DNA of 64,000 nt from Candidatus Woesearchaeota archaeon (GTDB lineage: Archaea; Nanobdellota; Nanobdellia; Woesearchaeales; JAZDKJ01), in assembly GCA_043803105.1 (NCBI GenBank), contig JAZDKJ010000006.1:364222-428221 (forward strand), in the 5' to 3' direction. Position numbers and translations under genes: made by a program. The notes below the pieces were generated by a model. It worked only from the letters and a program-made list of their open reading frames with translations. It was not told the DNA's origin and made no database searches. Below, piece after piece: positions 6,918 through 41,330 of this stretch. How positions within the stretch are numbered: position 1 is the first letter of the stretch; each line of letters starts with the position of its first letter.

Positions 6918-7044
6918 TGGGCCGGACGAGATTTTCTTTGTTTTTTTTTCCAAGTTGCATTCGAACTCGCGACCACCTGATTGCTTTGCAGCTTAAAAGT
7001 CAGGTGCTCTATTGCCCTTATACTCCAGGCTGAGCTACCGGCCC
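6918..7044 (-). tRNA. tRNA-Lys: tRNA-Lys(UUU), 127 nt, three introns (D-loop, anticodon loop, T-loop)
   Basis: Hand parse: GGGCCGG TA GCTC AGCCTGG[AGTATAAGGGCAA]TA GAGC A CCTGA CTTTTA[AGCTGCAAAGCA]A TCAGG TGGTC GCGAG TTCGAAT[GCAACTTGGAAAAAAAAACAAAGAAAAT] CTCGT CCGGCCC A. Exact splice points are ambiguous by 1-2 nt. Confidence 0.8.
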
Positions 7045-29637: not shown

Positions 29638-29672
29638 GGGGCTGCGGGGGAGCTGCGAAGTCAGCTCGCACC
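29638..29672 (+). ncRNA. Truncated degenerate copy of the tRNA-Pro 5' end plus conserved 23-nt hairpin
   Basis: GGGGCTGCGGGGG compared with the genuine GGGGCTGTGGGGT (U8 replaced by C). The hairpin is GAGCTGCGAAGTCAGCTCGCACC (29650-29672). The leader ACAATCATT matches ACAATCAAT before the real tRNA. Confidence 0.6.
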
Positions 29673-29710
29673 TTCGTGGGACATAAAGTCCCCCTGACAT
29701 CACAATCAAT

Positions 29711-29827
29711 GGGGCTGTGGGGTAGCTTGGTCTAGCCTATCTGGTTTGGGGCAATGCAAAAAACCAGATGACCCCGGTTCGAAAGTTTTATAAAAGGCTG
29801 ATTAACTCGAAAATCCGGGCAGCCCCA
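29711..29827 (+). tRNA. tRNA-Pro: tRNA-Pro(UGG), 117 nt, two introns (12-nt anticodon loop, 30-nt T-loop)
   Basis: Hand parse: GGGGCTG TG GGGT AGCTTGGTCTA GCCT A TCTGG TTTGGG[12 nt] CCAGA TGAC CCCGG TTCGAAA[GTTTTATAAAAGGCTGATTAACTCGAAAAT] CCGGG CAGCCCC A. The mature length is 75 nt. Confidence 0.85.
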
Positions 29828-29905
29828 CTCATGTTCGTGGTTGGTCTTCCCAATGGGAAGACGCACCCTTTAGGGTGCCGATGCAGTCAACAGGCATTTC
29901 TGTTG

Positions 29906-29921
29906 ATCCGGGCCGCCCCCA
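29906..29921 (+). other. Degenerate duplicate of the tRNA-Pro 3' end
   Basis: ATCCGGGCCGCCCCCA compared with the genuine ATCCGGGCAGCCCCA (29813-29827). Preceded by three hairpins (29828-29905). Confidence 0.45.
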
Positions 29922-29977
29922 CTCAGTTTTGTTGGCTAAAAACATGGGAAAACGCTGCACAAAGGGCAATTCGCAAA

Positions 29978-39088: not shown

Positions 39089-39242
39089 CGCCCGGTCAGG
39101 GATTTTCACTTGATGAGATTTGAACTGTCAGAAATTCACTGAATTTCTGAGCATGCTCGGAAACATAGTTTCCGACACCTGGAGACCTGTGATGGTCAAT
39201 TGCTTTTCAGGCAACCGCGATACCCGATTACGCTAGCCCGGC
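39089..39242 (-). tRNA. tRNA-Phe: tRNA-Phe(GAA)-like, multi-intron, imperfect acceptor stem
   Basis: GCCGGGC TA GCGT AATCGGGTA TCGC G GTTGC CTGAAAA GCAAT TGAC...[hairpin-rich insert]...G TTCAAAT[CTCATCAAGTGAAAAT] CCCTG ACCGGGC G. The acceptor pairs only 5/7 and the T-stem 5' strand needs a further intron. Confidence 0.4.
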
Positions 39243-39452: not shown

Positions 39453-39654
39453 TGGGGCTGCTGGGATTTCCATGCTTCTAGGACGGTCTTTTGGCATCAG
39501 CCAAAAGCCTTTTCCCAGGTTTTTGCATATTGCAAAAAGCTGTTTGGACCCAGATTAGGAGGTTTTCCGCTGAAAACCTTAGGTCAAATGCCCCGAACCT
39601 CCAGTGATAGTTTCTCGAAGAGTTTCTCTCTTCTCCAAGTTACACTACAGCCCC
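39453..39654 (-). tRNA. tRNA-Pro: tRNA-Pro(CGG), 202 nt, three introns (D-loop 25 nt, anticodon loop 28 nt, T-loop about 76 nt)
   Basis: GGGGCTG TA GTGT AACTTGG[AGAAGAGAGAAACTCTTCGAGAAAC]TA TCAC T GGAGG TTCGGG[28 nt] CCTCC TAAT CTGGG TCCAAAC[AGCTTTTTGC...GCATGGAAAT] CCCAG CAGCCCC A. Confidence 0.7.
39635..39654 (-). repeat. 20-nt perfect direct repeat, copy 1 (first 20 nt of tRNA-Pro(CGG))
   Basis: GGGGCTGTAGTGTAACTTGG, identical to 41164-41183. The flanking bases differ on both sides. Confidence 0.9.
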
Positions 39655-39855: not shown

Positions 39856-40989
39856 ATGGATAACAGAGCAAAATTTGAACTTATAACGAGAAATTTAGAA
39901 GAAGTACTAACACCTGCAGATTTAATGAAACTCATTGAAAATGATGAGCCTTTAAAGCATTATATTGGTTTTGAAATAAGTGGTAAGGTGCATCTTGGAA
40001 CTGGACTTATGTGTATGTCCAAAATTAAAGACTTCATGGATGCAGGTGCGGATGTTTCTGTGTTTCTTGCTGACTGGCATAGTTGGATTAATGATAAACT
40101 TGGTGGAGACAGAGAAGTTATCAAAAAAATTGCCGTCGGATATTTCAAAGAAGCGATGAAGGCTAGCCTTCTTTGTCTTGGTGGTAATCCTGAAAAAATA
40201 AGATTTGTACTTGGTACAGAACTTTATCACAATAATGACGATTATTGGGCAACCATGATTGATGTAAGTAAAAATACGACTCTAGGCAGGATGACTCGGA
40301 GCATTACAATCCTTGGAAGAAAAGAAGGGGAGGGAGTTGATTTTGCAAAATTGATCTATCCTGCAATGCAGGTTTCAGATATTTTTGTTCAGAAATTGAA
40401 CATACCTCATGCAGGAATTGATCAAAGGAAAGCGCAAGTTATTGCAAGAGAAGTTGCTTTAAAAATGAAAGTAAGTCAAATTACTGATAAAGAGGGTAAT
40501 AAAATTAAACCCGTTGCCCTGCATCATCATCTGTTACTAGGTCTTGGCAAACCCCCGGTATGGCCTGTTCCTCAAGATAAATTACAGGATTTATGGTCAT
40601 CAATGAAGATGAGCAAGTCCAAGCCGGACACTTGTGTTTTTGTTCACGATAGTCCTGATGAAATTAAAAGAAAGATTGCAAAGGCATTCTGCCCTGAAGG
40701 TGAAACTGTGTTCAATCCAGTACTTGATTGGGCTAAATATTTATTGTTCAGAGAGACGACTGATGAACTTATAGTAAAAAGGCCTGAAAAATTCGGTGGA
40801 ACTGTTATATATACAACTTACGAAAAACTTGAAAAAGATTTTGCAGACAAAAAAGTTCATCCAATGGACCTTAAAGATTCAGTTGCTGAAAGTTTAATTA
40901 AACTACTTGAACCTGCAAGAATCCATTTTGAAAAACCTGAAATCAAAAAGACGTTGGATCAGCTTAACAAGCTCATAACCACAAGGTGA
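39856..40989 (+). CDS. tyrS: tyrosyl-tRNA synthetase (archaeal type)
   Basis: 377-aa ORF, recalled as collinear with M. jannaschii TyrRS: IGFEISGKVHLGT, LADWHSWIN, IYPAMQVSD, KMSKS, RPEKFGG and HPMDLK. Markedly more A+T-rich than its neighbours. Confidence 0.9.
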   Translation: MDNRAKFELITRNLEEVLTPADLMKLIENDEPLKHYIGFEISGKVHLGTGLMCMSKIKDFMDAGADVSVFLADWHSWINDKLGGDREVIKKIAVGYFKEAMKASLLCLGGNPEKIRFVLGTELYHNNDDYWATMIDVSKNTTLGRMTRSITILGRKEGEGVDFAKLIYPAMQVSDIFVQKLNIPHAGIDQRKAQVIAREVALKMKVSQITDKEGNKIKPVALHHHLLLGLGKPPVWPVPQDKLQDLWSSMKMSKSKPDTCVFVHDSPDEIKRKIAKAFCPEGETVFNPVLDWAKYLLFRETTDELIVKRPEKFGGTVIYTTYEKLEKDFADKKVHPMDLKDSVAESLIKLLEPARIHFEKPEIKKTLDQLNKLITTR

Positions 40990-41074
40990 TTTTATTCCTT
41001 TTTGTATGTTTATTCTAGATAGTTAATATTAGAATACAAAATTTCAGGATTAGCCTAAAATGTTTTATGCTTCT

Positions 41075-41183
41075 TTTCGAATTCCGGTCGGACGCATTCT
41101 GGTTTCATCCTCAAGCGTAAGTGATAGTTGCTTCAGGCAACCGAGCGAACTGGTTGGCGCTGGCCAAGTTACACTACAGCCCC
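41075..41183 (-). pseudogene. Truncated tRNA: Pro-like body, anticodon GAG, no 3' acceptor strand nearby
   Basis: GGGGCTG TA GTGT AACTTGG[37-nt insert ending AAGCAAC]TA TCAC T TACGC TTGAGG[12 nt] GCGTC CGAC CGGAA TTCGAAA... No CAGCCCC follows before the tyrS stop. Confidence 0.5.
41164..41183 (-). repeat. 20-nt perfect direct repeat, copy 2
   Basis: GGGGCTGTAGTGTAACTTGG, identical to 39635-39654. Confidence 0.9.
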
Positions 41184-41290
41184 GTTGATTGTTATTGTTT
41201 CGCGAAGCTCACAAGAAACCTGATAGTTTCTTGGGAGTCCCAAAAAACTTCAAGTTTTTTGTGACGAAAGGCGACTGAAAGGAGTGTAAA

Positions 41291-41330
41291 GGTGCCAGCT
41301 GACTTCTCAGCTGAGTAGCACTACAGCCCC
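41291..41330 (-). ncRNA. Truncated tRNA 5' copy (GGGGCTGTAGTG...) plus conserved 23-nt hairpin
   Basis: GGGGCTGTAGTGCTACTCAGCTGAGAAGTCAGCTGGCACC. The hairpin CAGCTGAGAAGTCAGCTGGCACC (41313-41291) carries a compensatory C1/G18 change relative to the other two copies. Confidence 0.6.

Follow-up and report, generated by a model that had tools for sequence, protein, structure and literature searches.

What is a gene that begins as a tRNA-Pro, carries the anticodon GAG and ends in the T-loop? The question is raised by a locus at about position 41,100 on the minus strand of a 64,000-nucleotide (nt) stretch of contig JAZDKJ010000006.1 (hereafter the window), which comes from a metagenome-assembled genome (MAG) of a Candidatus Woesearchaeota archaeon, a member of the DPANN group. 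An earlier note, made from the letters of the DNA, had described this locus, here called the orphan, as either a recombinant pseudogene or the 5' part of a split tRNA completed in trans. Our analysis indicates, at a probability of roughly 0.78, that the orphan is a truncated, decaying relic of a cis-encoded tRNA-Pro(GGG) gene with three introns. Such a relic is ordinary in itself, one more dead tRNA gene fragment.

Coordinates are positions in the window, and the orphan is read in its sense direction on the minus strand (41183 to 41075). Direct reading of this strand showed that 41183-41076 covers tRNA positions 1-59. From 5' to 3', the layout is GGGGCTG TA GTGT AACTTGG, a 36-nt insert, C TATCAC T TACGC TTGAGG, the 12-nt insert ATGAAACCAGAA, and then T GCGTC CGAC CGGAA TTCGAA A. 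The parts are as follows, with slashes for predicted cleavage sites and H(a) and H(b) for the 4-nt strands of the central helix of a bulge-helix-bulge (BHB) motif.

41164..41183, minus strand: exon 1, tRNA positions 1-19, with acceptor 5' strand GGGGCTG, U8 A9, D-stem 5' strand GTGT and D-loop AACTTGG.
41128..41163, minus strand: D-loop intron, 36 nt, ACTT GG/C ... AAGC AA/C, in BHB-like geometry.
41109..41127, minus strand: exon 2, with C20, TATCAC (D-stem 3' strand), T26, anticodon stem 5' strand TACGC and loop TTGAGG.
41097..41108, minus strand: canonical 37/38 intron, 12 nt, ATGAAACCAGAA, with H(b) CCAG and bulge AA/T.
41076..41096, minus strand: exon 3, with T38, anticodon stem 3' strand GCGTC, variable loop CGAC, T-stem 5' strand CGGAA and T-loop TTCGAA (54-59).
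40990..41075, minus strand: 3' flank, 86 nt, AT-rich (~25% GC), the place where a 59/60 intron and a 3' exon are expected.

The anticodon arm is as the earlier note had read it: (T)ACGC/GCGT(C) encloses TTGAGG and ATGAAACCAGAA (41108-41097), followed by T38, and the anticodon GAG lies at 41112-41110 with G37 at 41109. The insert length that it had reported to be equal in other genes was also found, in tRNA-Pro(UGG) as GCAATGCAAAAA and in tRNA-Lys(UUU) near 7004 on the minus strand as AGCTGCAAAGCA. The anticodon stem contains a U27·C43 mismatch, C43 being the last base of GCGTC. When the introns are removed, the D-arm and the anticodon arm stand at canonical distances.

The 5' end of the orphan is shared with an intact gene of the window.

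39453..39654, minus strand: tRNA-Pro(CGG), intact, with three introns; its spliced product is read by ARAGORN as tRNA-Pro(cgg), and it is the paralogue sharing the 5' exon.

The first 20 nt of the orphan, GGGGCTGTAGTGTAACTTGG (41183-41164), match the start of tRNA-Pro(CGG) at 39654-39635 in 20/20 positions (BLAST E=1e-5), and the segment TATCACT (41126-41120) is common to both, which bears out the identity claimed before. Three occurrences of the 12-mer GGGGCTGTAGTG were counted in the window, where 0.14 would be expected. Scanning metagenomes with the 20-nt exon gave 40 loci; loci of relatives are cited below by L numbers. The exons of the orphan were aligned with 18 unique intronless relatives and the two Pro genes of the window (20 other tRNA-Pro), and they fitted column by column, which agrees with the proposed Pro-type body. 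Among the tRNA-Pro identity elements, G36, G37 and G1 are present, A35 stands in place of G35, and positions 72 and 73 are missing. The long variable arm of archaeal tRNA-Leu is lacking, again as had been observed; the variable region has four nt, CGAC. According to established identity rules, recognition by prolyl-tRNA synthetase (ProRS) requires G35/G36, and a 4-nt variable loop excludes Leu identity. As an observation on the paralogue itself, the spliced T-loop of tRNA-Pro(CGG) reads UCCAAAU, with C55 where U55 (pseudouridine) is nearly universal, and TCCAAA occurs likewise in L047.

The splice rule was taken from tRNA-Pro(CGG) and a second Pro gene.

29711-29827, plus strand: tRNA-Pro(UGG), whose spliced product is accepted by ARAGORN as tRNA-Pro(tgg).

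In both genes, an exon helix h is followed by the 4-nt H(a) and a bulge NN/N, and further on by the 4-nt H(b), a bulge AA/N and h'. The products spliced by this rule were accepted by ARAGORN, and an automated relaxed-BHB enumerator recovered both genes. The strands and bulges are these.

Pro(UGG), 37/38 intron: H(a) and bulge TTTG GG/G; H(b) and bulge CAAA AA/A.
Pro(UGG), 59/60 intron: H(a) and bulge TTCG AA/A; H(b) and bulge CGAA AA/T.
Pro(CGG), D-loop intron: H(a) and bulge ACTT GG/A; H(b) and bulge GAGA AA/C.
Pro(CGG), 37/38 intron: H(a) and bulge TTCG GG/G; H(b) and bulge CGGA AA/A.
Pro(CGG), 59/60 intron: H(a) and bulge TCCA AA/C; H(b) and bulge TGGA AA/T.

For both introns of the orphan, a BHB motif with a central helix of about 4 bp and two 3-nt bulges on opposite strands is predicted. 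In the D-loop, ACTT/AAGC form three pairs between the bulges GG/C and AA/C, with an inner hairpin CAG..CAACC/GGTTG..CTG between H(a) ACTT and H(b) AAGC; this is the architecture of the D-loop intron of tRNA-Pro(CGG), whose splice sites were validated by ARAGORN. At 37/38, TTGA/CCAG form three pairs, including one G·U, together with an A35·C mismatch, and the bulges are GG/A and AA/T. The T-loop TTCG AA/A makes up the 5' half of a 59/60 BHB, like that of Pro(UGG), Pro(CGG), L043, L050 and L051.

The 37/38 intron also bears on the former anticodon. The orphan departs from the consensus (>=90%) of the alignment at two positions: one in the variable loop, where the departure is shared with Pro(UGG) of the window, and position 35, where at least 90% of the 20 other tRNA-Pro keep G and the orphan has A. 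The intron ends in ..AACCAGAA/T (..AAACCAGAA/T), that is, CCAG AA/T, which is complementary to U32-U33-G34-G35 (UUGG). With UUGG, CCAG forms four of four pairs, compared with an A35·C mismatch with the present UUGA. The 37/38 introns of the relatives' tRNA-Pro(GGG) genes end alike, with ..AACCAGAG/T in L050/L052 and ..AACCAATG/T in L054; the T-stem begins with CGGAG in L050/L052 and L076, near the CGGAA of the orphan, and with CGGGG in L054. Because the intron end is complementary to UUGG, as in the Pro(GGG) genes of relatives, we infer that the orphan is a former tRNA-Pro(GGG) with a G35A change. The earlier remark that GAG is one transition away from GGG is consistent with this intron end, and the Pro(GGG) gene that it had described as missing from the window was indeed found nowhere in the 64 kb. 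A53 (G53A) was also considered as a defect and was ruled out, since three relatives have A53 too, paired with U61.

The 3' end of the gene is missing. Downstream of CGGAA-TTCGAA(A), neither the T-stem 3' strand nor CAGCCCC was found, and on the minus strand from the orphan to 39460 all CAGCCCC sites belong to tRNA-Pro(CGG), so the absence of both before tyrS stands as first described. In place of a T-arm with a 5-bp stem and a UUCRANY loop, the orphan has only CGGAA and TTCGAA (positions 49-59). The 7-bp acceptor stem is likewise lacking, there being no strand complementary to GGGGCTG downstream and no credible one in the window. When an invented 3' exon is attached, ARAGORN accepts the orphan as a cloverleaf. 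The flank is shared with the neighboring gene.

39856..40989, plus strand: tyrS (tyrosine--tRNA ligase, PF00579), between the orphan and tRNA-Pro(CGG), convergent with the orphan.

The trailer of the orphan begins with AAGAAGCAUAAAAC and contains a hairpin, ATTTTAGG-CTAAT-CCTGAAAT (41061-41041), followed by TTTT (41040-41037), which on either strand looks like a terminator and could serve both the orphan and tyrS, which is convergent with it. The TyrS protein has a fully identical (100%) counterpart in a Ca. Woesearchaeota MAG, its next best match is at 72% identity, and the tyrS neighborhoods of the relatives at 72% identity had no adjoining tRNA, i.e., no conserved synteny.

No completion of the tRNA was found in cis or in trans. 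Neither ARAGORN (introns on or off) nor the Rfam model RF00005 (even at E<=10) made a call at the orphan locus, a negative result that is weak alone, as the intact multi-intron genes of the window are missed likewise. Automated relaxed-BHB splicing of 400,001 variants of 41195-40940 gave no tRNA and recovered both controls; the better cloverleaf that the earlier note had reckoned with did not turn up in any of these searches. The search for a 3' partner covered the 64-kb window of the source genome. When every window position on both strands was tried as a trans 3' exon (255,920 constructs), ARAGORN accepted two loci, neither of them credible: the one at +18697 has U73 and a G·U in the acceptor stem and is without a complementary leader, and the one at -29651 is the antisense of another 5' fragment. 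A permissive scan for T-stem and acceptor pairing (G·U allowed) gave about 270 matches, the same as in shuffled sequences, and was uninformative. The free energy of the folded locus was also the same as that of shuffles (z = -0.37). A reading of CCTGAAATTTTGTATTC as the decayed remains of H', bulge and 3' exon gives agreement at about 7 of 14 positions, which does not stand out from chance in AT-rich DNA, and the segment lies within the hairpin.

Of the two readings first offered, the pseudogene fits best, and the recombination with tRNA-Phe proposed along with it did not hold. The likeness of the D-loop insert to the Phe-like gene of the window comes down to a 12-nt exact match, CGGTTGCCTGAA, with E=0.57, a level that several random 12-13-mers of the window equal. 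The hairpin GGTTGCC..GCAAC/TATCAC closes the D-loop intron of the tRNA-Pro(CGG) gene in L047, as it does in the orphan, and the Pro(CGG) gene of L051 has a related D-loop intron, ACAGCGC..GGAGCAAC/TATCAC. Judged by these sequences, the D-loop hairpin of the orphan belongs to an intron family homologous to the L047 and L051 introns and is no piece of tRNA-Phe. A Pro/Phe recombinant was therefore rejected, the match being at chance level and the hairpin being known from Pro(CGG) D-loop introns.

A repeated element upstream of the orphan, here called E, suggests that the gene was once whole.

41184..41330, minus strand: E3, upstream of the orphan, consisting of a copy of tRNA positions 1-12, the E core, and a tail/spacer up to the orphan 5' end.

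E3 starts with GGGGCTGTAGTG (41330-41319), which can be extended to about position 17 with two mismatches, and its core is CAGCTGAGAAGTCAGCTGGCACC (41313-41291). The core and tail are 82.5% identical over 40 nt to the E copy in the T-loop intron of the Pro(CGG) gene in L051. The same arrangement was found before tRNA-Tyr (core 7659-7637, minus strand) and before tRNA-Pro(UGG) (core 29650-29672, plus strand), giving three matches versus none expected. The core consensus, [C/G]AGCTGAAAAGTCAGCT[G/C]GCACCTT, is nearly invariant and forms a 7-bp stem whose closing pair covaries (C-G to G-C and the reverse); a variable tail hairpin follows it. A scan for the core in 185,579 genomes (GTDB representatives, among which the source genome is not included) gave 36 loci, mostly in MAGs of Woesearchaeota and Nanoarchaeota. 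In 15 of 27 non-redundant loci, compared with 1 of 60 controls, the 12-45+ nt that border the head of the core are found again 22-170 nt downstream. Most of these duplications concern the ends of tRNA genes, in one orientation the 5' part up to the D-loop and in the other the reverse complement of the 3' part to the T-arm; in every case, the broken fragment abuts the core and the intact gene faces the tail. E3 holds a duplicate of the orphan 5' end, and because such duplicates go with a second, mostly intact copy downstream, this suggests that the orphan was once a whole gene. In the relatives, repeated E elements sit at the 59/60 intron position, which is where the orphan breaks.

The defects of the orphan are three: the G35-to-A change, the U27·C43 mismatch, and the loss of everything 3' of the 59/60 intron position, namely T60, the T-stem 3' strand, the acceptor 3' strand and the discriminator. 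Having no 3' acceptor strand, the product could not fold as a cloverleaf, be CCA-tailed or be charged, and would therefore have no role in translation. On this account, the whole gene would have been present when E3 arrived, and the 3' exon would have been lost later, when a rearrangement or deletion cut through the gene in or at the T-loop intron. If the orphan is transcribed from a promoter region upstream of E3, its RNA would end at the hairpin and T-run that it has in common with tyrS.

Several points weigh against a relic of this kind. The 5' 108 nt are well kept, with a 20/20 match in the 5' exon and two BHB introns that are intact except for A35·C; uniform neutral decay does not look like this, and a recent truncation, or a 5' end kept up by gene conversion with tRNA-Pro(CGG), would have to be assumed. 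In the open reading frames (ORFs) of the window, CCU and CCC together account for 302 of 659 Pro codons (46%), yet the 64 kb hold no Pro(GGG); codons this common must therefore be read by another tRNA, be it a Pro(GGG) outside the window or Pro(UGG) with extended wobble. The pairing argument built on A35·C is supportive of a GGG ancestry and not decisive, since a single mismatch in the central BHB helix is also seen in L043 and L049, which are apparently functional. Finally, the absence of a partner is a result for the 64-kb window of the source genome.

An unlikely alternative is that the orphan was never complete at this place and is a tRNA 5' fragment, an attachment-site (att)-type repeat or displaced copy, left by a mobile element or cassette that entered or overwrote a Pro gene, with tRNA-Pro(CGG), 1.4 kb downstream, as the reconstituted gene. 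A model of this type, integration and recombination, has been published for the tRNA gene fragment tRNA-Thr-F of Caldiarchaeum subterraneum (Sugahara et al. 2012, PMC3293823). Like the orphan, tRNA-Thr-F is the 5' portion of a tRNA without its 3' part, upstream of an intact paralogue with the same 5' end, in a lineage where tRNA genes acquire introns and are interrupted by inserted DNA. A relative offers a further parallel. L051, which comes closest to the Pro(CGG) locus (85% over 143 nt), likewise contains a 5' fragment upstream of a full tRNA-Pro with an identical 5' exon: an 18-nt Pro 5' fragment at L051:1088-1105, with its own TATA box TTTAAATA about 27 nt upstream, lies about 800 nt before the Pro(CGG) gene, and a 159-amino-acid ORF on the opposite strand (L051:1201-1680) stands between them, so that the layout is a small-scale parallel of orphan-tyrS-Pro(CGG). 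In addition, tRNA-end fragments beside small elements are common in these lineages. However, the match between the orphan and tRNA-Pro(CGG) is limited to positions 1-26 (20 nt and 7 nt, repeated 1.4 kb downstream), and the D-loop intron, anticodon arm and T-stem differ. Unlike tRNA-Thr-F, the orphan is long (1-59), has two introns and is of another isoacceptor than the downstream gene; the DNA between the copies is the housekeeping tyrS, with neither an integrase or recombinase nor a mobile element. Moreover, the E3 duplicate upstream of the orphan implies that the orphan itself was the target gene.

It is quite unlikely that the orphan is a living half gene, the 5' piece (positions 1-59) of a split tRNA that an endonuclease and a ligase join in trans at 59/60 as in Nanoarchaeum equitans. 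The partner would be a separate RNA with T60, UUCCG, CAGCCCC and A73 that pairs with the trailer and completes a BHB at 59/60. The host is a DPANN archaeon, and split tRNAs were first discovered in this group; its tRNAs have non-canonical introns, including at 59/60, so that its endonuclease evidently handles this site. As in the split tRNA genes of N. equitans, Caldivirga maquilingensis (tri-split) and Staphylothermus, the orphan is a free-standing 5' piece ending at a BHB-intron position: the break is exactly at the 59/60 splice position, with H(a) TTCG and the bulge AA/A intact. The 5' exons and both introns look functional, and the window is without a Pro(GGG) despite its common CCY codons. 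Against this, no 3' partner was found within the 64 kb, and the trailer is AT-rich and folds on itself into the hairpin and TTTT, where a split half would show a stable, GC-rich pairing segment after the exon. Known split halves, such as those of N. equitans, have a 12-14-nt GC-rich pairing segment, and known split positions are at about 25/26, 29/30 and 37/38; we know of no reported tRNA split at 59/60. The anticodon is mismatched to the body as well. By the identity rules given above, A35 would abolish recognition by ProRS and the 4-nt variable loop excludes Leu, so the product would stay uncharged or mistranslate CUY; the U27·C43 mismatch also speaks against it. In one version, the live 5' piece would have become split at 59/60 through recombination of a repeated E-type element in the T-loop intron, with the 14-nt 3' exon now elsewhere, and this we consider very unlikely.

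An assembly artefact, in which the contig of the MAG was mis-joined inside a tRNA gene, is scarcely credible: the source is a metagenome assembly and E-type repeats lie at contig ends in another MAG, but the break is outside repeats with the shared 20-mer 100 nt upstream, the DNA at the junction makes a sensible bidirectional terminator for tyrS, and A35 and U27·C43 are independent defects.

A further related setting is that of multi-intron tRNA genes. Those of Thermoproteales and of ARMAN/Micrarchaeota (with epsilon2 or (alpha-beta)2 endonucleases) have, like the orphan, D-loop, 37/38 and 59/60 introns with relaxed BHB motifs that standard finders miss; in the orphan, by contrast, the 3' half of the third intron and the last exon are absent and nothing completes it in cis. 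The tRNA genes of the source MAG have up to three BHB introns each. The window contains at least five, of which ARAGORN and Rfam detected one, tRNA-Tyr; the others are missed because their introns lie in the D-loop, at 37/38 and at 59/60. Besides the two Pro genes, the following were located.

7559-7433, minus strand: tRNA-Tyr, the sole tRNA of the window found by standard tools.
Near 7000, minus strand: tRNA-Lys(UUU), with the 12-nt insert AGCTGCAAAGCA.
~39090-39242, minus strand: Phe(GAA)-like gene, Rfam 22 bits.

The Phe(GAA)-like gene has a good 5' half and a clear 59/60 intron (TTCA AA/T .. TGAA AA/T CCCTG), with more interruptions in the T-stem region, and between its 3' acceptor strand ACCGGGC and the 5' strand GCCGGGC only five of seven bases pair. 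This gene, too, may be defective or processed in an unusual way, a second such case in the same cluster. The region of tRNA-Pro(UGG) (29638-29925, plus strand) has partial self-copies on both sides. Upstream, there is GGGGCTGCGGGG with a further E copy, E2. Downstream, about 80 nt of hairpins include ..GGGTGCC and a hairpin (an E-like unit, reversed), and beyond them lies ATCCGGGCCGCCCCCACTCA, in which the T-stem 3' strand, acceptor strand and trailer of tRNA-Pro(UGG) are repeated in decayed form.

E corresponds to no Rfam family, and neither viral contigs nor the literature gave a match to its sequence. A hammerhead or other ribozyme, a C/D or H/ACA small RNA and an IS200/605 end were considered and set aside, there being no Rfam match and no literature match. 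Pfam gave no match for the ORF of L051 or for the ORFs beside E3. E looks like an undescribed small mobile or intron-related element, and it can stand inside introns: at L051:1985-2075, its core lies at the very start of a 91-nt 59/60 intron, right after the 5' splice site, and splicing gave a good tRNA-Pro(CGG) by ARAGORN. At L033:4088-4150, E apparently stands in the D-loop intron of a tRNA-Glu, without a duplicate, a plausible reading for which the splicing script gave no proof. The tRNA genes of this lineage thus appear to have been hit repeatedly by small elements that leave terminal fragments and are able to reside in introns, a picture reminiscent of the integration and recombination model put forward for Caldiarchaeum (PMC3293823).

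Other repeat arrangements were observed in related loci. In L040/L048, L071 and L075 (tRNA-Pro) and in L020 (another tRNA), one or two units of about 50 nt stand after a complete gene, each with a T-arm-like stem broken by a hairpin and ending in a copy of the acceptor 3' strand (..CGCAGCCCCA in the tRNA-Pro loci). Several of the units have the motif GCGAATGG in common, and in L075 compensatory changes set the stem of the unit apart from the real T-stem (CGGAG/CTCCG versus CGGGC/GUCCG). In the groundwater Woesearchaeota MAG JACQXV01, the E core lies inside a repeat of about 250 nt that resembles a miniature inverted-repeat transposable element, with inverted ends TTTGTTTAGC..GCAGCGTCGCCAC / ..GGCGACGCTGCTAAACAAA. 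About a dozen copies were seen (L001, L002, L005, L006, L010, L017, L019, L022, L024, L027, L029 and L032), many of them at contig ends.

Models of tRNA gene disruption and of the origin of split tRNAs postulate, as an intermediate, a gene broken exactly at an intron position, as the orphan is. Together with the duplicated tRNA termini, E may offer a handle on how introns and fragments of tRNA genes spread in archaea. The tRNA counts made with standard tools for Woesearchaeota and other Nanobdellota are probably too low. The "missing tRNAs" of Nanobdellota were derived from tRNAscan-SE counts (bioRxiv 10.64898/2026.05.13.725050), and part of them may be multi-intron genes of the kind found in this window.

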